A DNA stretch of 21,072 bases from an archaeon (lineage in GTDB: Archaea > Iainarchaeota > Iainarchaeia > Iainarchaeales > 1-14-0-10-31-34). The translations under genes were made by a program, and so were the position numbers. This document shows, in pieces, positions 2,111 through 21,072 of the stretch (position 1 is the stretch's first letter; each line of letters begins with the position of its first letter). The notes beneath the pieces were generated by a model. It worked only from the letters and a program-made list of their open reading frames with translations. It did no database searches and was not told the DNA's origin. Where the stretch lies: the NCBI GenBank assembly GCA_043819075.1, contig JBDRFE010000075.1, positions 1 through 21,072 on the forward strand, read 5' to 3'.

Positions 2111-2332
2111 TTAACTTAATTCGTCTTCTAATTGAGTTAAATCTTCTTCAGGCAAGTCAGCTAGTTCTTCTTCAAACAATGAATCAATTTCTTTGTCTTC
2201 AGCAGATAATGCTTGCCCTGAAAGCTGTTCTTCTGTGCTATTGTTTGTAATGTCTGCTGGTTTGGAAACACAGCCACTGAAAATAATTCCAAGCAATACA
2301 AGAATGCTTAAAATTAAAATACAGCTCTTCAT
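2111..2332 (-). CDS. Small acidic lipoprotein (73 aa)
   Basis: Start reassigned to ATG 2332 (GGGTGA RBS; ATGA overlap with the upstream stop). Signal peptide and lipobox MKSCILILSILVLLGIIFSG-C, with an acidic tail. Confidence 0.75.
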   Translation of the reverse strand: MKSCILILSILVLLGIIFSGCVSKPADITNNSTEEQLSGQALSAEDKEIDSLFEEELADLPEEDLTQLEDELS

Positions 2333-3558
2333 TGGTTCACCCTGTTGGTTGTGCTGGCTGCTTTTCTGACTCTTTCCTGAACTGCGGAAACTATTGCCTT
2401 GCATTTTTCTGTGTCCTTGAATCTGTCAAGCTTGCATAAAGCTGTTGCTGTAACCGCACACTTTGGGTCATCTGGATTTTTTTCGCAGAAGCCGATTCTT
2501 GTGGTTCCGCATAATTCTGCTGTCTGGTTGTATTCACAGAACTGTTTTATTATTGGAGCACAGTTTTCTGCTGAAGGGTTTTTCTTGCAGAAAGAAATTT
2601 CTGCTGCTTTGCATCTGGAATCCTTTTCGTGGGTTTTACAGTATTCTGCGAAAACATTCTGGCAGTTTGTGTCTTCAGGGTTTTCCTTACAGAATTCAAC
2701 TACTTCGCTTTCACAGTATTTTGTGTTAGGGAATTTTTCGCAGTAATCCTTCATTTCTTCCCTGCATCTTGCATCCCTCAGGTTTCCTGCACAATAGCTT
2801 CTGACTATTTCCTTGCATCTTGAGTCACCTGGATGGTCTTCGCAGTATCTTTCAACTTTTTCCCTGCATTCTTTTGGATTATCATTGCACAAGTATCCTG
2901 CGACAGACTTGCATGTTTCATCAAAAGGGTTTTCCTTGCAGTAATTTTTTGCTTTCTCTGCAATCTCTGATGCCTTGAACATTCTTTTTTGTGCAAGCAA
3001 ATAGAAATTGTATGGCTTTGAATTCAATGTCATTGTTCCTGCCCAGACATCAGCTGAAGGCTTTGCCACTTTAGTCAAAGAAAGGCTTCCGACAACTGTT
3101 CCGGTAAAATTGTTTGTATCAGTGTTTGTGTCAGCAAAAGAAACAATGTTTGCTGTTGCAGTGTCTCCGACAAGATTTAAATCAGTCAGCCTGTATTTTT
3201 CTTCATCTAGGTAAAGAATTCCTCTTCCAACAATATTTCTGTCAGGCAATGCAACTTTTCCGCCGACTACTTTAACAGTATAAAAGTCCATTGCGTCAGA
3301 CGGATTGGATGCAATTCCTGTTCCGGAAAAAAACAGTGTCCTGATAAAAGCTTTTTTTGGCGCATCATCTGCAGAAAGTGTTTCTTCATCTGATTCCTCT
3401 AATTCAATTCCTTCATCTGGCTCATTTGTGTCATCTAATTCATCTGCATCACCTGCTGTTTCATCAGAAGAAACAGTGTCATCTGTTTCAGCCATTACAA
3501 CTGAAGCCAGCAAAACTGATGCTAAAAAAACAATTAAAATTAAATTAAATCTGTTCAT
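2329..3558 (-). CDS. Secreted protein with acidic linker, beta-rich domain and about 11 Cys-pair repeats
   Basis: Signal peptide, D/E-rich linker and tandem [YF]C-x-x-NP-x-D-x-x-C repeats of about 16-17 aa. GGGTGA RBS. Confidence 0.8.
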   Translation of the reverse strand: MNRFNLILIVFLASVLLASVVMAETDDTVSSDETAGDADELDDTNEPDEGIELEESDEETLSADDAPKKAFIRTLFFSGTGIASNPSDAMDFYTVKVVGGKVALPDRNIVGRGILYLDEEKYRLTDLNLVGDTATANIVSFADTNTDTNNFTGTVVGSLSLTKVAKPSADVWAGTMTLNSKPYNFYLLAQKRMFKASEIAEKAKNYCKENPFDETCKSVAGYLCNDNPKECREKVERYCEDHPGDSRCKEIVRSYCAGNLRDARCREEMKDYCEKFPNTKYCESEVVEFCKENPEDTNCQNVFAEYCKTHEKDSRCKAAEISFCKKNPSAENCAPIIKQFCEYNQTAELCGTTRIGFCEKNPDDPKCAVTATALCKLDRFKDTEKCKAIVSAVQERVRKAASTTNRVNQ

Positions 3559-7707: not shown

Positions 7708-9216
7708 ATGTATTCAGAAAAAGTAATGAAAGAATTCAAGAACCCGAAGAATTTAGGGAAAATAGATAACCCAGATGCAGTAAGCGAAGTAGGAAACCCA
7801 GTCTGTTTAACTCCTGAAACAAAAATTGACACAACAAAAGGATTAACAGAAATCAAAGAAATCGAAAAAAATGATTTTGTTTTGAACCATAAAGGCAAAT
7901 ATTCTAATGTTTCAAAAAAATTCCAAAGGGAATATAAAGGAAAAATTGTTAAAATAAAAAGCAAATTAGGCATAAATTTTGTTACTCCAGAACACCAAAT
8001 TTTTGCGATAAAAATTCCAAAAAATTATCGTTTCTTTCTTCATAAAAACAAGAAAAAACTTTTTCCTGATTGGTTTCATGCAGAAGAACTTGAAAAGGGA
8101 GATATAATTACTTATCCTATACTAAAAGAAATAAAAGATAAAAAATACATTAGTTTCAAACAAGAAAGAAAAAAATGGGATTTTAGAAGTCAAAAAATTC
8201 CAAATAAAATTAATGTAAATAATGATTTCTTAAAATTTGCGGGGTATTATCTTTCTGAAGGAAATATCAAAGAGAAAGTTGGTAAAACATATTTGGGATT
8301 AACCTTTGGTTCAAAAGAAGATTTTTTAGCTGAAGATTCTATCAAAATTGTTAAAAAAAGTTTTGGGATAAAAGCCAAAAAAAAGAAAAGAGAAAAACGC
8401 AACACAATAGTAGTAGAAGTAAACAATGTTTGGTTAACAAGATTATTCCTAAAACTGTTTAACAAAGGCGCAAAAAACAAAAAAATACCTTTTGAATTCA
8501 TGATTCTGCCTCCAAAAAAACAAAAAAGTCTTATTTATGGGTTGTGGATGGGTGACGGGTATTTTAATACAGAAAGGCCTAGAGCAGGATATTCAACTAT
8601 TTCTTATGAATTATGCCACCAAATTAAAACACTTTTATTAAGACAAAGAATAGTCCCTTCTATTTATACTGAAAAAGAAAAAACTGTCAAAGGAGTTAAC
8701 CACCAAAAATCCTATAGAATACATATTGGAGAGAGAAAGTCTCTGAAAATATTAGCTAAAATTCTTAGAATACCATTTAAACCAAAAAAAACAACTATTA
8801 CTGATTCCTGGTTTAAATCAAACTATCTTTGTGTTCCAATAACTGCTGTAAATAAAGTAGACTATAAAGGCAAAGTATACAATCTAGAAATTAAAAGTAA
8901 ACATTCATTCACTACTGAATCATTAAGTGTTCATAACTGCGGGGACATGCTGAAAGTTTACTTAAAAATAAAAGACAACAAAATAGAAGACATTAAAGTG
9001 GAAACATTCGGCTGTGTAAGCGCAATTGCCACTTCTTCAAAGGCAACTGAAATGGTTAAAGGAAAAAGCATTGAAGAAGCATTGAAATTAACTGAAAAGC
9101 AAGTGGCAGACGCATTAGATGGTCTGCCTCCAATTAAAATGCATTGCTCTGTTTTAGCTGTGCAGGCAATAAAAAAAGCCATTGAAGACTACAAAAACAA
9201 GCAAAAAAAATCTTGA
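7708..9216 (+). CDS. iscU: Fe-S scaffold IscU/NifU-N (124-aa extein) interrupted by an intein
   Basis: The spliced product reads GNPV-CGDMLK...TFGCVSAIA...LPPIKMHCS, giving the three Cys ligands and the LPPxK motif. Follows iscS, with a GGTGA RBS. Confidence 0.92.
   Translation: MYSEKVMKEFKNPKNLGKIDNPDAVSEVGNPVCLTPETKIDTTKGLTEIKEIEKNDFVLNHKGKYSNVSKKFQREYKGKIVKIKSKLGINFVTPEHQIFAIKIPKNYRFFLHKNKKKLFPDWFHAEELEKGDIITYPILKEIKDKKYISFKQERKKWDFRSQKIPNKINVNNDFLKFAGYYLSEGNIKEKVGKTYLGLTFGSKEDFLAEDSIKIVKKSFGIKAKKKKREKRNTIVVEVNNVWLTRLFLKLFNKGAKNKKIPFEFMILPPKKQKSLIYGLWMGDGYFNTERPRAGYSTISYELCHQIKTLLLRQRIVPSIYTEKEKTVKGVNHQKSYRIHIGERKSLKILAKILRIPFKPKKTTITDSWFKSNYLCVPITAVNKVDYKGKVYNLEIKSKHSFTTESLSVHNCGDMLKVYLKIKDNKIEDIKVETFGCVSAIATSSKATEMVKGKSIEEALKLTEKQVADALDGLPPIKMHCSVLAVQAIKKAIEDYKNKQKKS
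7804..8937 (+). mobile_element. Intein with LAGLIDADG homing endonuclease (378 aa) in iscU
   Basis: Block A CLTPETKI, block B VTPEH, endonuclease motifs FAGYYLSEG and LIYGLWMGDG, block F VYNLEI, and C-terminal VHN followed by +1 Cys. Confidence 0.92.
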
Positions 9217-12772: not shown

Positions 12773-13681
12773 TTAAGCAACCACCTCAATGTTTAATCTT
12801 TTTTTAAGCTCTCTGTACCTGTTTCGGATTGTTACTTCTGTTACTCCGGCAACATTTGCAACTTCTTTTTGGGTTCTTCTTTCTCCTTTTAAAAGCCCTG
12901 CAATGTATACTGCTGCTGCAGCAACACCTGTTGGCCCTCTTCCAGAAATCAATCCGTTTCCAATTGCTTCTTCAAGAATTTTTCTTCCTTCTTCTTGTAC
13001 TTCACCTGAAAGATTTAATTCTGAAGCAAACCTTGGAATGTAGTGGATTGGATTAGTTAACGGAACCTCTAATTTTAATTCTCTTACTAAAAACCTGTAA
13101 GTTCTTCCGATTTCTTTTTTGGTTAAACCAGAGGCTTCAGCCATTTCATTTAATGTTCTTGGAACATGATAGGTTCTGCACACAGTGTATAAAACTGCTG
13201 CAACAACTGCTTCAATTAATCTTCCTCTAATCAGGCCTTTTTTCACTGTTTTTCTGTACAATAATGCAGCTGCTTCAACTAAAGAATCAGGAATGTTCAG
13301 GTATGAGGCAACTCTCCTTAATTCAGTCAAAGCAATTGACAAATTTCTTTGCATTGAACTTGAAATTGAAGCTCTTTTATGCCATTTAATCAGCCTGTAC
13401 ATCTGGGCCCTTGACTTTGCTGACAGCTTGTTTCCCCTTAAATCTGTTCCTCTTCTGTCAATCATTGTCACAAGGCCTTTGTTCAGCTTAACGTATTTCA
13501 TTGGACTTCCTGTTCTAGCTCTTTCTTCAAACTGGTCTGAGTCAAAACTCCTCCATTCTTTTCCCTGGTCTATTTCATCTTCTTCTATAATTAATCCGCA
13601 GTCCTTGCAGACTAATTCCCCTTTCTCTGCGTCTTTTCTTACATTCTTGCTCTTACATTCAGGACATTCAGTCACCATCAA
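12773..13681 (-). CDS. tfb: Transcription initiation factor IIB
   Basis: Zn ribbon CPEC...CKDCG, EWRSF B-reader, two cyclin repeats and GVTEVTIRNRY HTH. Confidence 0.97.
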   Translation of the reverse strand: MMVTECPECKSKNVRKDAEKGELVCKDCGLIIEEDEIDQGKEWRSFDSDQFEERARTGSPMKYVKLNKGLVTMIDRRGTDLRGNKLSAKSRAQMYRLIKWHKRASISSSMQRNLSIALTELRRVASYLNIPDSLVEAAALLYRKTVKKGLIRGRLIEAVVAAVLYTVCRTYHVPRTLNEMAEASGLTKKEIGRTYRFLVRELKLEVPLTNPIHYIPRFASELNLSGEVQEEGRKILEEAIGNGLISGRGPTGVAAAAVYIAGLLKGERRTQKEVANVAGVTEVTIRNRYRELKKRLNIEVVA

Positions 13682-13804
13682 AATCCACCTTCTTAATTAA
13701 ATCAAATGTATTGTTCTTCATATTACGAAAAATAAACGATAATAACACAAGGTAAAAATGAGAACGAATTAGTACATCACTATAATAAATAGCCCCATAA
13801 GAAG

Positions 13805-13820
13805 TATTTAAAGCTTTTGG
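13805..13820 (-). promoter_or_regulatory. Probable BRE-TATA promoter of tfb
   Basis: The minus strand reads CCAAAAGC-TTTAAATA, a canonical archaeal BRE plus TATA pointing toward tfb, about 125 bp from its start. Confidence 0.65.
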
Positions 13821-13827
13821 TTCAGCT
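13819..13827 (+). repeat. 9-bp target-site duplication GGTTCAGCT (left copy)
   Basis: Identical to 18362-18370 and directly abuts the left terminus. 9 bp is the TSD length of IS903. Confidence 0.8.
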
Positions 13828-13832
13828 GGCGT

Positions 13833-13880
13833 TGCACACAAAATGGATTTTGCACACAAAAAAAGGGTTTTGCACACAAA
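13833..13880 (+). repeat. Subterminal TGCACACAAA x3 (13833, 13851, 13871)
   Basis: Exact 10-mers at 18- and 20-bp spacing. Confidence 0.9.
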
Positions 13881-13923
13881 AAGAATGTGAGATAAAATGA
13901 ATTTAAAAGGAGGTGAAAACGCA

Positions 13924-14184
13924 ATGGAAAAGGATATAAACCAGAAAAACCTAATAAAAAACATGAATGAAAAAGGACAGAACATCACCACTAACAAAGT
14001 TCTTGGTTTTTTGATTTTGTTTTTTGGGGCATACATGTTATTTGTTTTATTTAACATAGTGACCCCCATCCCAGGATACACTGAATTTTTAATAAACAGT
14101 GGCTTTTCAGTTATTCCAGTTCTTCAATTTATTATTGGAGTTATATTGGTTTATTTTGGTTATAATCTCTTAAATGAGGCTTAA
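13924..14184 (+). CDS. Small membrane protein (2 TM), transposon cargo
   Basis: GGAGGTGA RBS before the in-frame ATG at 13924, and two hydrophobic segments. Confidence 0.7.
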   Translation: MEKDINQKNLIKNMNEKGQNITTNKVLGFLILFFGAYMLFVLFNIVTPIPGYTEFLINSGFSVIPVLQFIIGVILVYFGYNLLNEA

Positions 14185-14186
14185 AA

Positions 14187-14627
14187 ATGGACTGGGGGGA
14201 CTTAAAAAAACAAATACCAACAATTCTTCTTGGGTTCATTTTATTTTCAGCATTACAATTACTAGCTGAAGGAGATATTTTATCCATACTTTTTATATCT
14301 ATTGCATTTTTCTTGCTTTATTTATTTTTAGACTGGATAGTACCAAAAATAAACAAAAAACTTAGCTTTATTTACAAACTAAAAGACTTGCAAGAAGAAA
14401 ACAAAAAAATGAAAGAAGAGATAACTATTTTACAGAATGAAAATAATAAATTAAAAAATAAAATAAACAGTTCACGACCAGACTCTGTTGTTAAAACAGA
14501 ACCAGAATCTGAGTGGGTTAGCCCAATAACAATACACTTTGAAAAAATGTTTGAGAACTTTCAAGACTTACCCTATAAAATGTTAGGGTGGCAAAAAAGA
14601 AAAAAAATAAAGAAGAAAGAAGAATAA
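14187..14627 (+). CDS. Membrane protein (2 TM) with coiled coil, cargo
   Basis: Two N-terminal hydrophobic helices and the heptad region LQEENKKMKEEITILQNENNKL. Starts 2 bp after the previous stop. Confidence 0.75.
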   Translation: MDWGDLKKQIPTILLGFILFSALQLLAEGDILSILFISIAFFLLYLFLDWIVPKINKKLSFIYKLKDLQEENKKMKEEITILQNENNKLKNKINSSRPDSVVKTEPESEWVSPITIHFEKMFENFQDLPYKMLGWQKRKKIKKKEE

Positions 14628-14637
14628 ATTAATTGTT

Positions 14638-14666
14638 TGGACTGCTTGAACACACACAAACTTTGA
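14638..14666 (+). repeat. Imperfect direct repeat copy A (upstream of lipoprotein gene)
   Basis: TGGACTGCTTGAACACACACAAACTTTGA matches 15244-15271 at 24/29 positions with one gap. Confidence 0.7.
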
Positions 14667-14706
14667 AACCGAAAACCTAAAATACGAGTTAAAACTACAA
14701 TAAAGC

Positions 14707-15147
14707 GTGAAACAGTTAATTTTGATTGCATTAATTGGTTTGATTTTGTTTAGTGGTTGCAGTGAAATCGGAATTGATTTATCTAAGCCAGTTGATTGTG
14801 GAACCGATTTAAATTGCTTTGAGGAACATTTAAAGTATTGTGAAAAAGCAACAGTAGAATACACTGAAGAAGTTGGATTAGGGTATACATGGGTAAGTAT
14901 GGATGAAAGTTTTTTTACGCTTCCTGGAAGTAAAGCAAGTATTATAGAATTTAAATCACCACAAAGTTGGTGTTCTGTTTCATATACAAAAGTAAGGTTT
15001 TTGAAAAAAAAGGCGTATAGTATCAATGAAACAGAAATAGATGAAGTTTGGAATAAAGCTGAATGCAGGTGGGAAACAAATGAACCAGGAACCAAGTATT
15101 ACAGCAGAGAACCTGGTTTTAGAACGTGTGTGAGATTAAGAGATTAA
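14707..15147 (+). CDS. Cys-containing lipoprotein, cargo
   Basis: GTG start, signal peptide and lipobox LILFSG-C, and a DCGTDLNCF...C motif. Confidence 0.75.
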   Translation: MKQLILIALIGLILFSGCSEIGIDLSKPVDCGTDLNCFEEHLKYCEKATVEYTEEVGLGYTWVSMDESFFTLPGSKASIIEFKSPQSWCSVSYTKVRFLKKKAYSINETEIDEVWNKAECRWETNEPGTKYYSREPGFRTCVRLRD

Positions 15148-15243
15148 TTTTATCCTGTTAGCACTAAATTTCCTTTTTCATTTCTTCAATGATTAATTTC
15201 TTTTCCCCGTAACCAGCAGGAGCAATGTATAGTTTTGTTGTTG

Positions 15244-15271
15244 TGGGCTACTTGAACACACTCAACTCTGA
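15244..15271 (+). repeat. Imperfect direct repeat copy B (downstream of lipoprotein gene)
   Basis: TGGGCTACTTGAACACACTCAACTCTGA; see copy A. Confidence 0.7.
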
Positions 15272-15307
15272 TTTAAGCTTTTCTTTAAACAAATTTTAAA
15301 GGTAAAA

Positions 15308-15526
15308 ATGTCTTTAATGGAAAGAATTGAGTTGGCTGTTGCAGTTATTATTGGCGCTTTTTTTCTTTTATATTTTTATCTTACTGGCGATTATGTTGGT
15401 GCAATCACTGGTTTAGTTAATGGCATGGTTCCTTTGCTTGCAACTGTTTTAAGTTGGGTTGCAGGAAGCACAATTCTTGTTTTAATCGTTATTGCTGGTT
15501 ACTTGGTTTTAAGTAAAATGAAATAG
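15308..15526 (+). CDS. Small hydrophobic membrane protein (72 aa), cargo
   Basis: Almost entirely hydrophobic (2-3 TM), AAGGT before the ATG, basic C-terminus. Confidence 0.7.
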   Translation: MSLMERIELAVAVIIGAFFLLYFYLTGDYVGAITGLVNGMVPLLATVLSWVAGSTILVLIVIAGYLVLSKMK

Positions 15527-15528
15527 TT

Positions 15529-15690
15529 TTATTCTTTGTTTTCTTCTATTAGTGAATTTATGATTTTTTTCATTATAGACTCAAGAGAATTTTTTTTGTC
15601 TCTTGCATAAATTGTAGTGGTTTTAGATTTGCCTGACTCTAAATCAATTAATCTTAACCTATAATTTCCCTTTTGCCTGCCTACTTGCAT
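15529..15690 (-). CDS. Small hypothetical protein (53 aa), not in ORF track
   Basis: Manual translation MQVGRQKGNYRLRLIDLESGKSKTTTIYARDKKNSLESIMKKIINSLIEENKE. It fills the gap and converges 2 bp from the previous stop. Confidence 0.6.
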   Translation of the reverse strand: MQVGRQKGNYRLRLIDLESGKSKTTTIYARDKKNSLESIMKKIINSLIEENKE

Positions 15691-15731
15691 AAATATAATA
15701 TGTGGCTTTTTGGCATTTAAATTAACAAGAA

Positions 15732-15762
15732 CTTGTACAACGTTTTGTACAAGGTTTTTAAC
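15732..15762 (+). promoter_or_regulatory. Putative operator (TTGTACAA x2) adjoining a TATA-like box
   Basis: Palindromic 8-mer at 15733-15740 and 15745-15752, followed by GGTTTTTAAC, between divergent genes. Confidence 0.5.
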
Positions 15763-15786
15763 CTTTTAGTATTAACAAATCTTATT

Positions 15787-16047
15787 ATGCCTTTGCGTAA
15801 TAGAGAAGTTAGGTCAAATAGGACTACACAGAAAATTCAGACTTTGCAAGACCAAATGCGTCAATTGAAAAGGGATTATTTTTATTTGGAAAGCAAAATA
15901 GTACGCATCCAAGAAGCTTTATTGGATGTAGCAATATTCAAACGCAAAACACAATACATTCACTTACAAGACTTGTTAGATGCATTAGAAAAATATGCTT
16001 TAATAGAAAAAAATGTAACAGGAAAACCATACAAAACAAAAAAATAA
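15787..16047 (+). CDS. Coiled-coil hypothetical protein (86 aa), cargo
   Basis: The ATG at 15787 is preferred over TTG 15733, which overlaps the operator. Heptad pattern IQTLQDQMRQLKRD. Confidence 0.6.
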   Translation: MPLRNREVRSNRTTQKIQTLQDQMRQLKRDYFYLESKIVRIQEALLDVAIFKRKTQYIHLQDLLDALEKYALIEKNVTGKPYKTKK

Positions 16048-16060
16048 AAAAGAAGGGTGA

Positions 16061-16075
16061 AGGGCTTAACGCCCT
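16061..16075 (-). terminator. Possible terminator hairpin between convergent genes
   Basis: AGGGC-TTAAC-GCCCT stem-loop, with a T-rich tract about 10 nt further along the minus strand. Confidence 0.4.
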
Positions 16076-16374
16076 CAGAGTTTTTTTGCAAACTCTATTC
16101 CTTCATTAGTCCATTGAAAGGTGTTTGTTCTATGTTTCTTCAAAAGACCTGCTCTTATCATTCGGAGTAATACTTTTTTTGCTTGTTTACGCTGATTCTT
16201 GTCTACATGTCGTGTCATGTTTACTAGCTCAGCGTGTTTTTTTCTTGCAAACTTTAACTCTCCGATTACACATCTTTTGATTACAAACACATCCCAAGGG
16301 TCAATGAAAAAATCACCCTTGTTGGTTTCTGATATACCAACCACCTCCAAGAATTTTCTCGTTGGCTTAACCAC
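16075..16374 (-). CDS. Small basic winged-helix-like protein, cargo (start uncertain)
   Basis: C-terminal AKKVLLRMIRAGLLKK...FQWTNEG resembles a wHTH recognition helix and wing. Confidence 0.6.
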   Translation of the reverse strand: MVKPTRKFLEVVGISETNKGDFFIDPWDVFVIKRCVIGELKFARKKHAELVNMTRHVDKNQRKQAKKVLLRMIRAGLLKKHRTNTFQWTNEGIEFAKKL

Positions 16375-16495
16375 TTTGTGGTTGGCTTTTTTGCCTTAAA
16401 AGGCATTAGAATAATGCAACGTCATATTTAAATATGTTGTCATATAATATTATTTGAGAATGAGAATATGGTTTTCTGTATAGAAGCTCAAAAAA

Positions 16496-16512
16496 CCAAA
16501 AAGCTTTTATAT
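16496..16512 (+). promoter_or_regulatory. Probable BRE-TATA promoter for the wHTH gene
   Basis: CCAAAAAGC-TTTTATAT. Confidence 0.5.
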
Positions 16513-16624
16513 TCAAAGAGTCATAATATTTTCGTAAAAAAAAGTTTATGCAAAATTCTTGAAGTCGTGTCATGTTTACTAATTCTTAATATCACAAAAA
16601 TTGAGTTGAATGGAGTTGAGTTGA

Positions 16625-16930
16625 ATGGAAATTTCCTTTACCCACATAAAAGACCCGTTAATTAGAAAAAGAGTTGAGAGTGCAGTCCAGATTTTTGTAG
16701 AATCTGGAAAAGACACTGATACTTTGACTAAAAAGTTTATTTCAAAAAAAGGCAAGGGCACAATTTATGACATTGCAAAACATTTTGGTTGGACTGAAGG
16801 AAAAGCACAAGGCTCAATTAAAAGATTAGAAGAAGCCAAAATCATCAAGCAAATAAAAAGCGTAGAAGAAAATGGCAGAACAAAAAAATTCTATGTATTA
16901 AGAACTCTCCAAGAGTTGCTTGCCGATTAA
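16625..16930 (+). CDS. Winged-helix transcriptional regulator, cargo
   Basis: GTIYDIAKHFGWTEGKAQGSIKRLEEAKII...GRTKKFY, an ArsR/TrmB-like wHTH pattern. Confidence 0.75.
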   Translation: MEISFTHIKDPLIRKRVESAVQIFVESGKDTDTLTKKFISKKGKGTIYDIAKHFGWTEGKAQGSIKRLEEAKIIKQIKSVEENGRTKKFYVLRTLQELLAD

Positions 16931-16943
16931 TGAAAATATTTTT

Positions 16944-17081
16944 TTATTTTTTCTTTTTAGGCACATTCCAATATGGAGACTTGCATTTAGGACAAACTTT
17001 TGGCAAAGCTTTTGTATTTCTTGGACTCCAAGGGTGTTGGCATCTTTCGCATTTGAATCCTTTTAGTGTTATTTCAGCCAT
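16944..17081 (-). CDS. Zinc-finger microprotein (45 aa), not in ORF track
   Basis: Manual translation MAEITLKGFKCERCQHPWSPRNTKALPKVCPKCKSPYWNVPKKKK, with two CxxC pairs. AAGG directly precedes the ATG. Confidence 0.8.
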   Translation of the reverse strand: MAEITLKGFKCERCQHPWSPRNTKALPKVCPKCKSPYWNVPKKKK

Positions 17082-17087
17082 CCTTTT

Positions 17088-17149
17088 AAGTAATATACCA
17101 ATAGGTATTAAAACACTTTGCATTATGTATACTTAATAATATATTACTT
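17088..17149. promoter_or_regulatory. Inverted repeats in the divergent Zn-finger/transposase promoter region
   Basis: AAGTAATATA (17088-17097) and TATATTACTT (17140-17149) are perfect inverses. Internal dyad ATACC-AATA-GGTAT at 17095-17108. Confidence 0.45.
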
Positions 17150-17161
17150 GAAGGTATACAA

Positions 17162-18343
17162 ATGGAACATATTAAATGCCCAACCTGCGAAAGTTTTAAC
17201 ATAAAAAACTTTGGCAGAAGAAGAACCATCAAAACCCAACAAAACAAATACATTCTATTTTGCTTAGACTGCGGGCACAGCTTTAGCTTAGATGAACTAA
17301 ACGATTACCCCATAAAAGAAAAAATTAAAGAAATTAACTACAAACAAGACTGGACAGCATACAATTTAGCCAAAACCAAAGAAAAAACACTATTCTTAGA
17401 AATACTAAGCGAACTATTAAACCAAATTCCTTACACACCCCAAAAAAAAGTTGGCAAACCAAGTATGAATTTAAAAGAAATCATTTTTTGTAATGCAATC
17501 AAAGCCTATGACAACCATTCTGCAAGAAGAGTTATTGCAGACATAAAATTATGTAACGCCAAAGGCTACATTAATTGGGAATGGCATTTTAACACTATTT
17601 TAAAGGGATTAAACAAACAGGAATTAACTGGCTTACTTAAACAACTAATTTTGTTAAGTGCATTGCCTTTAAAAGAAATTGAAGACCAATTTGGTTCTCA
17701 GTTCGCAGTTGATTCAACTGGTTTCTCTAACAAAATTTATTCAAGCTGGCATCACACTAAATGGGAAACAAAAGAAAAACACGCTGGCTGGCTTAAAGCC
17801 CACATAATTATTGGAACAAAAACCAACACAGTAACAGATGTTAAAGTTACTCTTGGAACTGCCAATGACTCGCCTTTATTGCCTGAACTCGTTTTTAGGA
17901 CTTCAGCTTATTTTAATGTTTTAGAGGTTTCAGCTGACAAAGGCTATTTAAGTGAAACCAATTTACAGGCAATTGAATCTATTGGCGCAACTCCTTTCAT
18001 TCCATTTAAGTCTTTAAATAAAAACACTACAAGCAAGTCAGGCATTTGGAAAAAAATGTTTAAATTATATTTTTTTAATTCAGAGCAATTTAAAGAACAT
18101 TATCATAGGCGTTCTAATGTTGAAAGCACGTTTTCTGCTATTAAAGGAAAATTTGGTGGCTCTCTTAAAAGCAAATCTTTTGTTGGGCAAACTAATGAAG
18201 TTTTGCTAAAAGTTTTATGCCACAACATTTGTTGTTTAATTCAAGAAATGTATGAAACTGGTGTTGATGGTTTAGTTGCCCAAGAAATTTCTAATTTTTG
18301 CACACAAACCCTCGCAACTGCACACAAATTACAAAAATATTAG
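17162..18343 (+). CDS. IS5-family (IS903-like) DDE transposase with N-terminal C4 zinc ribbon
   Basis: W.AYN, VDSTG, WLKAH, ADKGY and the Y-2-R-3-E-6-K signature (YHRRSNVESTFSAIK). N-terminal CPTC...CLDC. Confidence 0.9.
   Translation: MEHIKCPTCESFNIKNFGRRRTIKTQQNKYILFCLDCGHSFSLDELNDYPIKEKIKEINYKQDWTAYNLAKTKEKTLFLEILSELLNQIPYTPQKKVGKPSMNLKEIIFCNAIKAYDNHSARRVIADIKLCNAKGYINWEWHFNTILKGLNKQELTGLLKQLILLSALPLKEIEDQFGSQFAVDSTGFSNKIYSSWHHTKWETKEKHAGWLKAHIIIGTKTNTVTDVKVTLGTANDSPLLPELVFRTSAYFNVLEVSADKGYLSETNLQAIESIGATPFIPFKSLNKNTTSKSGIWKKMFKLYFFNSEQFKEHYHRRSNVESTFSAIKGKFGGSLKSKSFVGQTNEVLLKVLCHNICCLIQEMYETGVDGLVAQEISNFCTQTLATAHKLQKY
18299..18328 (+). repeat. Subterminal TGCACACAAA x2 (18299, 18319)
   Basis: Same 10-mer and same orientation as at the left end, 20-bp spacing, inside the transposase 3' end. 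Confidence 0.9.
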
Positions 18344-18361
18344 GAATGTGTATGCAAAGAC

Positions 18362-18370
18362 GGTTCAGCT
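18362..18370 (+). repeat. 9-bp target-site duplication GGTTCAGCT (between elements 1 and 2)
   Basis: Identical to 13819-13827 and flanked on both sides by element termini. Confidence 0.8.
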
Positions 18371-18401
18371 GGCTTTGCTATTTTAGTGCCTTTTTTGGCT
18401 T

Positions 18402-18433
18402 ACTTTAGGAGCAAAAATGGCACTTTAGGAGCA
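18402..18433 (-). repeat. Subterminal ACTTTAGGAGCA x2 (TGCTCCTAAAGT on minus)
   Basis: Exact 12-mers at 18402 and 18422, with a degenerate third copy near 18381. Confidence 0.85.
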
Positions 18434-18446
18434 GTAAAGACTTATT

Positions 18447-19313
18447 TTATTCAGGTCTATTTTTATTTATCAATAACTCCAATATTATTATATTCTCTTT
18501 TTCATAAATATTTTTTTCAAAAAAGTTCATAAAATCTTTGTTTTCATCAACCCACTTTTTTATTGTTTCAAGATTGTGTTTGCCAATTCCATGTATATGT
18601 ATAAAATTAAAACCATACTTTGTGGATATGTTTAATTTTGATATTATTGACTTTGTTATTTCTTCTGGGCTCGTATTTGAACTAACAAATAGTGTCAATG
18701 CAGTTTTTTCCACGACTATTTGGTATAATTCTTTGAATTTTTCTGGGGATAAATTATACAACGGTATTAAAAATCCTTCAAAATAGTTTGCTGAACATAA
18801 ATTGCAAATGTTTTTGCCCCTATCACCAAACTTTGCTATTATATCTATTTTTATTTTTGTTATGTCGTTACCCTTTTTAAATTCAGACCTTAAATACAGT
18901 GATGATTCTAAAGCATCATAATCTTCTGGAGAAATTATTTTTTCAAAAAAATTTAAGACTTGAGCATCATCATTTTCTTTTTCATATTTATAAATATTGT
19001 TGAGTTGGCTTTCTGTTGTTTTTTCAAGGAGTATATTCTCTTTACTATCTTCAGTAAAATCATTTATGAGTTCTTTAATTGTTTTTTTTTCTTCTTCTTT
19101 AATCTTTGCAAGATTTATTTCTATTGTTTTTGTTTCATTATTAAAAAACATTTCCCCATTTTTTGAAATATTTTGAATAAGAGAACCTTTATTTTTTTGT
19201 GTTTTGTTAAAACTGTTGTTGAAATTAATAAAAGAAACATCTTTTAACAAAGGAGAATTGATGTTTATAGTAATTATCCCTTTTAGTTTATCCAAAACTT
19301 TATCTAAATCCAT
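18447..19313 (-). CDS. Hypothetical protein (288 aa), possible C-terminal Smr/Alba-like domain
   Basis: Long ORF. C-terminal FNFIHIHGIGKHNLETIKKW resembles the Smr IHGxG motif (by-eye match only). Confidence 0.7.
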   Translation of the reverse strand: MDLDKVLDKLKGIITININSPLLKDVSFINFNNSFNKTQKNKGSLIQNISKNGEMFFNNETKTIEINLAKIKEEEKKTIKELINDFTEDSKENILLEKTTESQLNNIYKYEKENDDAQVLNFFEKIISPEDYDALESSLYLRSEFKKGNDITKIKIDIIAKFGDRGKNICNLCSANYFEGFLIPLYNLSPEKFKELYQIVVEKTALTLFVSSNTSPEEITKSIISKLNISTKYGFNFIHIHGIGKHNLETIKKWVDENKDFMNFFEKNIYEKENIIILELLINKNRPE

Positions 19314-19328
19314 AAAAATAAAAGGAGA

Positions 19329-19574
19329 CTATTTTTTAGACTTTATAAATTTGAATAATGAAACAACATTATCCCTTATAAATATTTCAGACCCTTTTTT
19401 ATAGCCACCAAATTCATCCGCCTTTATTTCTTGTTCGTCAAAAGCCAATACACGTTGAGAAGGGTTTTCTTTTTCTACAATATAACCATCTTTATCTACA
19501 TCTTTCCCAAGCAAATCAAAAATTTCTTTCTTAGCGGACTTATCAAAAGTTATTTTAATATTAGACATACTCAA
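19329..19574 (-). CDS. Small hypothetical protein (81 aa), probably co-transcribed with the 288-aa gene
   Basis: Globular-looking ORF ending 15 bp upstream of the next gene, same strand. Confidence 0.7.
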   Translation of the reverse strand: MSMSNIKITFDKSAKKEIFDLLGKDVDKDGYIVEKENPSQRVLAFDEQEIKADEFGGYKKGSEIFIRDNVVSLFKFIKSKK

Positions 19575-19667
19575 TACCTATAACAACCACAAATTAATAT
19601 ATTTGTTTATTTATAAACTTTTCCTATATTCAATTTTTGTCTTTAATTTAACTATATCTAAAAATCT

Positions 19668-20834
19668 TTAAAATTCTATCTTTATCCCAAGTTCATGTGT
19701 TTCGTGGATTAAAACTGCAATATTGTATGCTATTATTTTACATAGTAATTCGTTTGTTTGGCTTACAAAAGTTTTGTTTTTTAGGCAGTCGCCGAATTTT
19801 GTTTTGATTGCCATAAAAGTAGTTTCAACATTGCTTCTTGCATGATAATGTTGCATGAATTCTTCTTGGTTGAATTGAAAGTAGCAATACATTTTTCTCC
19901 AGATTGAGTTTCCTTTAGATTTTCCTGTTGCATTGCTTCTGAAAGGAATAAATGCAATTCCATTCAAATCATCAACTAATGCAAGATTTTCTCTTGAACT
20001 GTAAGCCTTATCTGCCATCATTTTCTGAACATTAAAACCGTTTTCTGCTATTGTTTCAACTAATGGCTTAAATTGAGGGCAGTCAGCTCCATTCTCTTGA
20101 GTGATTTCTGCTGAGCATACAATATTTGTTTTGTTACCAGAACAAATATGGGCTTTTACCCATTTATGTTCTTTTTTTGTGCCATGCTTTTCTTTACAAT
20201 ACTCATTAAATCTTGTTGTTCTGAATCCTGAACTGTCTACTGAAAAGCTTGTTTCAATTACTTTTAACGGAGAAGCTGATAAAGTAATTAATTCTTTTAG
20301 TATTGAAGTTATTTCTTTTTCATTTAAGATTTTGTTTATTGCATTATAGTTTGGTGTTTTGTTGATTATGTTTTTTCCTTGTGCGTTTTTGAATAAACTA
20401 TAAGCCCTTCTTGAACTTAATTGAGAGTAAACTTTTTGGATTGCACAAAACAAAACTTCTTTTCTGCTTAATTTAGGTCTGCCAAAAGAATATTCAGGTT
20501 CTTCAATTTCTTTTAATAAATCTTTTAATAAAACTTCAAATTGGTTTACTTCACATTTTTGTGCTTCGGTGTAAGCTCTCCAAGCCTGAGGATAACTTAA
20601 TTTAATTTTGTGTTTTGTTCCATCAGGCTTTTCAATCTGCAAATAATACTTTACTGCAAAAGCGTGTTTGCAAGTGCAGTGCCTTTCTTTATGGTCAGGG
20701 CAACTGCAAGAGTAATCTTTTCTAACAAAATATTTTTTGTTTGAAGTTTGACTTGGAACTATCCATCCATCTACTCCACTTTGAATTGTTTTTGTTTTGA
20801 ATATCTGTAATCCTTTTTGTTTTCTTAAATCCAT
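19668..20834 (-). CDS. IS5-family (IS903-like) DDE transposase with N-terminal SWIM zinc finger
   Basis: CSCPD...CKH (SWIM), W.AY, VDSSG, WVKAH, ADKAY and YHARSNVETTFMAIK (YREK). Confidence 0.9.
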   Translation of the reverse strand: MDLRKQKGLQIFKTKTIQSGVDGWIVPSQTSNKKYFVRKDYSCSCPDHKERHCTCKHAFAVKYYLQIEKPDGTKHKIKLSYPQAWRAYTEAQKCEVNQFEVLLKDLLKEIEEPEYSFGRPKLSRKEVLFCAIQKVYSQLSSRRAYSLFKNAQGKNIINKTPNYNAINKILNEKEITSILKELITLSASPLKVIETSFSVDSSGFRTTRFNEYCKEKHGTKKEHKWVKAHICSGNKTNIVCSAEITQENGADCPQFKPLVETIAENGFNVQKMMADKAYSSRENLALVDDLNGIAFIPFRSNATGKSKGNSIWRKMYCYFQFNQEEFMQHYHARSNVETTFMAIKTKFGDCLKNKTFVSQTNELLCKIIAYNIAVLIHETHELGIKIEF

Positions 20835-20960
20835 TTAAATTACCCCTAAAAAAAATGTTTCTATTACACTAATGCTTAACAAAAGTTTAGGGTTCTTTTT
20901 ACCTAAAACCTTTGAATTTAAAATCATTAATGCAAAAAATAATGAAAAAACTTTAATCAT
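20835..20960 (-). CDS. Possible 41-aa hydrophobic peptide coupled to transposase 2
   Basis: MIKVFSLFFALMILNSKVLGKKNPKLLLSISVIETFFLGVI. AAGGA upstream, and its TAA directly precedes the transposase ATG. Confidence 0.3.
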   Translation of the reverse strand: MIKVFSLFFALMILNSKVLGKKNPKLLLSISVIETFFLGVI

Positions 20961-21039
20961 TTAAATTCCTTCTTTTTACATAGTTTAAGTCTTATATTAC
21001 ATAGCAACAAAAAGCATATAAATATATCTATGAAATATT

Positions 21040-21058
21040 AGTCTCATTTTATGAGACT
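21040..21058. promoter_or_regulatory. Perfect dyad AGTCTCAT-TTT-ATGAGACT, putative operator
   Basis: 8-bp inverted arms just downstream of a plus-strand AAAAGCATATAAATA BRE/TATA-like box. Confidence 0.45.
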
Positions 21059-21072
21059 TTTAAAACATATGT

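Follow-up and report, generated by a model that had tools for sequence, protein, structure and literature searches.

Two different cargo-carrying transposons of the IS903 type are stacked at exactly the same 9-bp target upstream of tfb, the gene for transcription factor B (TFB), in an archaeon of the order Iainarchaeales. How did two divergent elements come to insert at one and the same base? The locus is part of the 21,072-nucleotide contig JBDRFE010000075.1 (C75) of assembly GCA_043819075.1 (genome G000), and the whole of this stretch is referred to as the window. A preliminary description of the window attributed the stack to a site-selective family that builds tandem arrays at a fixed locus. 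Our results supported site selection and tandem stacking, but not a single 9-mer or a single locus, since 59 archaeal elements of the family had 58 different duplications. Instead, the target is a position, and the constant feature is its 6-bp distance to a TATA box.

Two elements and three target copies at the tfb promoter

The order of the locus is tfb, target duplication, element 1 (4,534 bp), target duplication, element 2 (6,035 bp), target duplication, and fen1. The tfb gene, whose promoter is the putative target (12773 to 13681, minus strand; Pfam TFIIB and Zn_Ribbon_TF), has its ATG 140 nt from the first copy of the duplication, GGTTCAGCT at 13819 to 13827. Between the two lie a TATA box, TTTAAATA on the minus strand (13805 to 13812), and a 6-bp spacer (13813 to 13818, minus strand) that reads AAAAGC, has an A at -3 and -4, and corresponds to the TFB recognition element (BRE). 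On the tfb strand, the site reads AGCTGAACC, AAAAGC, TTTAAATA, which is the duplication, the BRE, and the TATA box. A box recurs at this place upstream of tfb in relatives, and it probably functions in the tfb promoter.

Only two copies of GGTTCAGCT were found in the window. Each is flush with an IS903-like terminus, and the second copy (18362 to 18370) is common to both elements. The order that had been described (9-mer, element 1 at 13828 to 18361, 9-mer, element 2) was confirmed, as were the inward readings of the three visible termini. The two transposase genes (17162 to 18343, plus strand; 19668 to 20834, minus strand) are divergent and oppositely oriented, as had been claimed; the enzymes are 40.8% identical over 338 amino acids, each is single-copy in the genome, and the end cores of the two elements differ.

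The preliminary description had suggested that an extension of the contig to the right might reveal a matching end and a third 9-mer, and both were found. The last 70 bp of the window (21003 to 21072) matched one end of a further contig of G000 (C9) exactly. C9 carries the rest of element 2, which ends in an inverted repeat that matches the left end of the element at 18 of 19 nt, and behind this end are a third GGTTCAGCT (C9:14134-14142) and then fen1. The bare 9-mer is common by itself, with 34 copies in 1.235 Mb, yet each of the three copies abuts a matched terminus, so the arrangement is no chance event. The 70-bp join between C75 and C9 is shorter than most contig overlaps in the G000 assembly. 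We consider the join credible because of the closed repeat, the duplication, the synteny of tfb and fen1 in relatives, and a same-genus element (L065) that has matching small regulator genes. A search for the empty site, which had also been proposed, was successful: in five of five same-genus genomes, tfb and fen1 are located back to back, and the site is present once. The first seven letters of the site, TTTTGGTTCA, are common to all five, and the last letters of the 9-mer vary.

A different allele of the locus was present on a contig of sequencing run X2, which came from another study. This contig matched window positions 13652 to 13827 without a difference, and its continuation agreed with a "D" end of the element 2 type at 28 of 29 nt (the end types are described below). 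In the X2 allele, an element like element 2 is reversed and located directly at the tfb site, with no element 1 in front. The best reading of this allele is that the same target was used independently.

We also considered and rejected a composite transposon, because each element has one transposase, its own ends, and its own duplication, and because the enzymes are 41% identical. A separate observation concerned the tfb upstream region itself (window 13780 to 13812; L003 to L030), in which two conserved TATA-like boxes about 20 to 25 nt apart were seen across the order. The elements use the gene-distal box; the pair of boxes may reflect autoregulation.

A fixed distance to the TATA box in archaea

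Relatives of the window elements were found in the phylum of G000 (38 of 215 genomes), in the Thermoplasmatota phylum (17 of 301), and in a third archaeal phylum (43 of 301), where the tally includes one unpublished genome (G714) that no other result uses. Family relatives were also present in metagenomes and in IMG/VR. We examined 239 transposase loci, of which 113 had both ends and a duplication. Removing three duplicates and two loci with atypical ends (L089 and L100) and adding the two window elements yielded a set of 110 rows. The duplication was 9 bp in all 59 archaeal rows and 10 bp in 7 of the 51 other rows; the end finder favored 9-bp duplications, and a generic search over 4 to 10 bp likewise ranked 9 first.

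With both flanks pooled, 41 of the 59 archaeal elements had an octamer with at most two mismatches to the consensus TTTAWATA at a distance of 6 nt from the duplication, compared to 4.4% at other offsets. Phylum by phylum, the counts were 17 of 23, 4 of 8, and 20 of 28. Side peaks at offsets 4 and 8 were TA register shifts. The strict pattern NNTWWAWA, for which L089 and L100 were restored, was found at offset 6 in 44 of 61 archaeal elements and in no more than 3 at any offset outside 4 to 8. When one element per genome was counted, the pattern was present at offset 6 in 33 of 47, and the offset-6 peak was also observed in genomes of 43 to 56% GC (23 of 28). Fixed consensus patterns were used because promoter matrices built from G000 tRNA or gene upstream regions picked other repeats and the ribosome-binding site.

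The spacer between the duplication and the box resembled a BRE, whose position relative to the TATA box was taken from the available part of PMC2699501. Of 40 spacers, 34 had an A at -3, which at other TATA matches was present in 28%, and 30 had a purine at -6. Compared by flank, an A at -3 was present in 41 of 46 promoter flanks and in 9 of 39 opposite flanks. The opposite flank was flat, and the signal of the cargo-carrying family was strictly one-sided. Similarly, an ATG was located within 150 nt in 28 of 40 promoter flanks versus 13 of 40 opposite flanks. Element orientation relative to the promoter was free (22 versus 18), only 2 of 42 archaeal sites were in long frames, and several elements within one genome were located at different promoters. 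These data show statistically that the archaeal duplication stops 6 bp short of the TATA box, on the upstream side, and that the BRE and TATA box are left intact, pointing away from the element.

As alternative targets, tRNAs and known RNAs were unsupported: the window contained no tRNA and no Rfam match at the gathering level, and no tRNA was located directly behind the targeted TATA boxes. In front of many tRNA genes in G000, the place of a plain TATA box is taken by shared leaders that are palindromic or richer in GC, and several of these leaders resemble copies of one small repeat.

When homologues were compared, the duplications did not recur, but a few promoters did. The tfb (G000 and G027), tbp (L097 and L252), and L7Ae (L128 and L283) genes were targeted repeatedly with different duplications, and one unknown gene was also targeted repeatedly (L063, L077, L087, and L291). 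These four genes are used repeatedly in separate lineages. In the case of G027, which belongs to another family, the element end is located at the matching offset from the tfb TATA box, next to a different 9-mer. In front of the element end in this genome lies a 25-bp duplication (L080:4560-4640) in which both the 9-mer and the tfb TATA box are contained; it is either real or an assembly artifact. In addition, we fetched the tbp loci of 28 relatives by a TBP search only, and 4 of the 28 had a family end located 9 + 6 nt before the first TATA box. The full end architecture was found in G003 and G008, and short ends only were found in G005 and G027. No transposase remains beside the end in the three genomes in which the flank was readable (G003, G005, and G008). 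The boxes at these tbp hot spots have no A at BRE position -3. At the tbp promoter of G000 itself, what looked like an element end was rejected as host sequence with the wrong spacing. The tbp promoters of the order (L299 to L326) contain arrays of at least three TTTTTAAA-like boxes at intervals of about 12 nt. Just upstream of the arrays, several genomes have decayed transposon ends, among them a 62-bp mini element in G018 (L332:2819-2880).

Bacterial elements served as a control for the host. The TATA octamer was present at offset 6 in 0 of 43 bacterial-clade elements, which have the same domain layout and ends as the archaeal elements. At overlapping GC, the offset-6 box was found in 20 of 26 archaeal elements and in 0 of 25 bacterial-clade elements. 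The bacterial and phage elements formed one clade in a quick tree of 108 enzymes (42 rows, support 98), with nine elements confirmed as bacterial by flanking genes and the remainder assigned by tree position. Compact IS903-type elements provided a further comparison: the box was at offset 6 in 9 of 18 archaeal elements versus 1 of 17 bacterial elements (p 0.007, with copies within one genome not being independent). The archaeal set consisted of NF033579 elements from genomes of the Thermoplasmatota phylum (29 loci examined, L335 to L363; 18 complete copies), which are 1.0 to 1.45 kb long, have ends unlike those of the cargo family, and carry no cargo; for the bacterial set, 64 loci were examined and 17 were scored. 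The cargo and compact lineages are 23 to 32% identical in full-length matches, and both have the rule in archaea and are without it in bacteria.

Bacterial-clade insertions showed other arrangements. Three related elements (L158, L160, and L194) were located in one REP-like palindrome, in both orientations and with 10-bp duplications. Tandem stacks of up to three divergent elements with one common duplication and no TATA box were seen in L175 (1500 to 9600), L167, and L184, and L175 has extra partial copies of the duplication. Five insertions (L149, L157, L169, L171, and L174) were within about 30 nt of motifs that presumably resemble Xer recombinase half-sites, at varying offsets.

Ends, enzymes, and cargo of the elements

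The family consists of IS5/IS903-type DNA transposons with one DDE transposase, passengers, and asymmetric three-site ends. In the 110 elements, the 12-nt core at the tip of one end (the "D" end) is repeated directly at +23 (77 ends) and +43 (70 ends), and the core at the tip of the other end (the "I" end) is repeated in inverted form at +31 (74 ends) and +51 (63 ends). Shuffled controls had 0.1 sub-terminal core copies per end. Both window elements match this spacing exactly. Element 1 (plus strand) has its D end at 13828 to 13882 (plus strand) and its I end at 18299 to 18361 (minus strand). For element 2 (minus strand), the left 2.7 kb (18371 to 21072) is in the window with the I end at 18371 to 18433 (plus strand), and the rest, including the D end and the third duplication copy, is on C9. 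The tips of element 1 are degenerate (GGCGTTG and GTCTTTG), and its two ends are mismatched at 2 of the first 8 nt and 5 of the first 17 nt. The archaeal rows range from 2.4 to 9.3 kb, except for the compact 1.0-kb L101 and one 13.4-kb element that contains a nested element.

Both transposases are intact. Transposase 1 (393 amino acids) has an N-terminal zinc ribbon and a DDE domain (D184, D259, and E321), and transposase 2 (388 amino acids) has an N-terminal CxCxD..CKH zinc motif, which we take to be SWIM-like, and a DDE domain (D200, D275, and E337). Pfam DDE_Tnp_1 matched both above its cut-off, and the D, D, and E residues are invariant. The best NCBIfam model for both was NF033579, with 127 and 124 bits, which is below the cut-off of 140. 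A structure model of the transposase (pLDDT 86.7) matched distant DDE enzymes only, and a sequence search found no relative with a solved structure. The archaeal TATA-adjacent elements are found in both the SWIM-like clade, with element 2, and the zinc-ribbon grade, with element 1; no archaea-only domain was seen in the family transposases. The idea that the N-terminal zinc domain is the targeting module was unsupported, because both types target TATA boxes and the bacterial SWIM-type enzymes do not.

The cargo of element 1 (13897 to 16930) consists of about seven small open reading frames (ORFs) for membrane or lipoprotein-like proteins and a winged-helix protein (16625 to 16930), and none matched a family above its cut-off. 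The cargo of element 2 in the window (18447 to 19574, minus strand) encodes 288- and 81-amino-acid proteins of unknown function. In general, the cargo of the window elements is made up of small membrane or lipoprotein-like proteins and winged-helix regulators, with no assignment in PADLOC, PHROG, or Atlas and no defense matches. Three regulators of element 2 are in common with L065, which is located at a different promoter. Across the family, cargo is mostly restriction-modification (clusters of 27, 18, 8, and 5 ORFs among 441, some of which are spurious). No cargo family is common to all elements; the largest cluster has 27 ORFs, for restriction-modification, in 110 elements.

Three other features of the window were noted. 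A stretch of about 100 bp over the start of a lipoprotein-like ORF (14645 to 14765) has copies of 74 to 88% identity on C9, C19, C27, C59, and C60, where they precede different secreted proteins, and it may be a cassette-like leader. At 7708 to 9216, an IscU/NifU-like gene beside a cysteine desulfurase-like gene is split by an apparent intein of about 380 amino acids (by eye from the translation). Finally, positions 2 to 2095 and 2329 to 3558 encode two cysteine-rich repeat proteins that are probably secreted or surface-anchored.

Members of the IS903 group are typically about 1 kb long, carry only a transposase, and have no sub-terminal repeats. Transporter insertion sequences (tIS) resemble the window elements in having a single insertion sequence-type transposase and passengers between one pair of ends; no tIS of the IS903 group is known to us to have either such ends or such a way of choosing its target. 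As a comparator, we used L334, a 1,052-bp IS903-type element on a Klebsiella plasmid. The DNA of L334 had no match in the Escherichia coli collection. The IS903 group (IS5 family) and the window elements share a DDE_Tnp_1 enzyme, GGCTTTG-type ends, and a 9-bp duplication. The window transposases are 22 to 23% identical to that of L334, and they have an extra N-terminal zinc domain; their family is 2.4 to 9 kb long with passengers and has three-site asymmetric ends, whereas L334 is without sub-terminal repeats. TATA-anchored targeting in archaea is likewise a feature of this family and not of the comparator. At 4.5 and 6.0 kb with cargo, the window elements are a variant of the IS903 group and not plain members. 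The earlier classification as single-transposase, cargo-carrying IS903-type elements with 9-bp duplications was supported by both window elements and by their relatives.

How the insertion position may be set

We consider it probable that archaeal insertion is held to a fixed position by docking beside promoter-bound TBP, with or without TFB, and that the stack arose in this way. The transpososome would be positioned by the initiation factors that the host has bound to the promoter, and it would lie over the BRE and against TBP, on the side that is upstream of the TATA box. Placement could occur via a protein contact, or via the bend that TBP induces, as might be compared to Ty3 integrase with TBP and Brf1. 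The duplicated 9 bp, the BRE, and the TATA box survive each insertion, and the gene would keep working. Because these parts survive, the target is recreated and the site is reusable; a later, unrelated element could then insert at the same base and push the earlier element away from the promoter. A reusable promoter-proximal site suggests that element 1, which is promoter-proximal, is newer than element 2. A transpososome with a footprint of the duplication and about 6 bp to either side would end at the edge of the TATA box and occupy the BRE. With somewhat less assurance, we also favor the broader idea that the TBP(-TFB) promoter complex is the landing pad on which archaeal IS903-type transposases, cargo and compact alike, rely for insertion 6 bp from the TATA box on its upstream side. 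This would be a prokaryotic counterpart of Ty3/TFIIIB targeting with no extra targeting protein.

Several results weigh against docking at the promoter complex. According to the available part of PMC2699501, TFB makes backbone contacts at the three positions of the duplication that are nearest the promoter, which might produce a clash between TFB and the transpososome. This contact and the tbp hot spots without an A at -3 suggest that TBP is the likelier partner and that TFB would be displaced. The NNTWWAWA pattern was drawn from the flanks under study, and TTTAWATA was chosen after the flanks had been seen, so independence is limited to the comparisons that were made between offsets, between sides, and between host domains. 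The strict pattern was missed by 17 of 61 archaeal elements, most of which had near-matches, and L239, L249, L262, L274, and the nested (inner) element of L271 had no TATA-like box. The X2 allele was represented by one contig with a depth of 11 and a 29-nt overhang. Bacterial compact IS903-type elements had an A at index 4 in 25 of 34 cases and preferred A-rich flanks, compact archaeal elements had an A on both sides (26 of 36) and a signal that was partly two-sided, and the REP-like palindrome site had a box resembling TTTAAA at 15 nt from the far cut, which is the archaeal distance. Finally, stacks without a TATA box were flagged in 5 of 43 bacterial-clade rows, and a few more were seen by eye, indicating that stacking has a second cause or another target.

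Some of these results are expected under the main rival, which is direct readout of BRE-TATA DNA. Here, archaeal IS903-lineage enzymes would read the sequence or shape of the site (an A-tract at the cut and flexible TA steps 7 to 14 bp out) unaided by a host protein. Both the positional rule and the stack would follow equally, there would be no clash with TFB, and the A-rich preference of bacterial IS903-type elements, which overlaps the BRE adenines, the partly two-sided A signal of compact archaeal elements, and the bacterial sub-clade with a TTTAAA-like box would be accommodated. However, the signal of the cargo family is strictly one-sided and nearly all of the archaeal sites are outside long frames. 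Moreover, G000 has 15,366 TATA-like octamers, of which 1,766 have an RnAA BRE, yet RnAA was found at 30 of 46 targets. Two lineages of such low identity also have the rule in archaea and lack it in bacteria. We therefore view direct readout as possible but rather unlikely. Capture of an incoming transposase by a resident element end, which would give a flush insertion and leave promoter targeting to explain the first insertion only, is doubtful. An adjacent resident end was the sole positional signal in the bacterial clade (7 to 8 of 43 rows in a k-mer scan), and L175 has three elements in a row. In archaea, however, the far flank of the stacked element was BRE/TATA-like in seven of nine stacks besides element 2 (by eye), elements 1 and 2 combine different end cores with divergent enzymes, and the X2 allele has an element-2-type end directly at the promoter-proximal position. 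Insertion beside a resident end may contribute to stacks.

Random or loosely AT-biased insertion, followed by selection that spares genes and promoters in gene-dense genomes, would account for the 40 of 42 archaeal sites outside long frames. Under selection, any distance past the BRE would be tolerated, but the strict pattern formed a single-offset peak that persisted at higher GC; this contradicts the explanation and makes it very improbable. Hardly any credence is left for recognition of GGTTCAGCT itself or of one fixed locus. The three identical 9-mers and the use of tfb in at least two genomes and a further strain are what such recognition would produce, but the diversity of the duplications refutes it as a family rule, and L065, despite the regulators that it has in common with element 2, is located at another promoter.

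In eukaryotic retroelements, it is known that the basal transcription machinery can direct targeting. Within the literature covered, which left most subscription papers and ISfinder outside, we found no report of such targeting by a prokaryotic DNA transposon and no account of TATA-anchored transposition in archaea. The closest parallel is yeast Ty3, which, according to the available part of 10.1101/2021.07.27.453949, has a DDE-type enzyme and inserts at a set distance from a promoter while leaving the gene unbroken, with its placement set by integrase contacts with TBP and the TFIIB-like Brf1. The archaeal elements likewise lie at a fixed distance from a factor site and leave the gene intact. 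Ty3, however, is a long terminal repeat retroelement that inserts 2 to 3 bp upstream of the start of RNA polymerase III genes, downstream of the TFIIIB site (same source), whereas the elements described here are prokaryotic DNA transposons located upstream of the BRE-TATA at protein genes, where a factor contact would be made. As far as the available parts of PMC6563490 and 10.1101/2025.07.27.667033 describe them, casposons and Tn7-family elements are also site-selective archaeal cargo elements, and casposons insert in tandem at a single target and share duplications there (PMC6563490). They differ in using Cas1 or multi-protein TnsABC/TniQ machines and gene-specific sites, whereas one DDE protein and many promoters are involved here; we found no dedicated targeting protein, Cas1 integrase, or gene-specific att site in the family. 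The terms "TATA," "TFB," and "promoter" are absent from the available part of the archaeal Tn7 preprint (10.1101/2025.07.27.667033). Aloposons, which carry giant genes and use tRNA sites according to the available part of PMC8813620, were rejected as a match.

New here are the closed stack with three duplications, the allele with a reversed element at this site, the controls with bacterial and compact elements, the end architecture, and the tfb and tbp hot spots. The proposed use of the promoter complex can be tested directly with one small enzyme plus TBP and TFB. If it is true, it would show how mobile DNA survives in archaeal genomes that are small and dense in genes, and it would explain how restriction-modification and other cargo accumulates at promoters under a genome-wide safe-harbor rule, notably at tfb and tbp. 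Element ends would then mark the promoters of uncultured archaea at base resolution, and the enzymes might offer a single-protein, gene-sparing integration tool for archaea.

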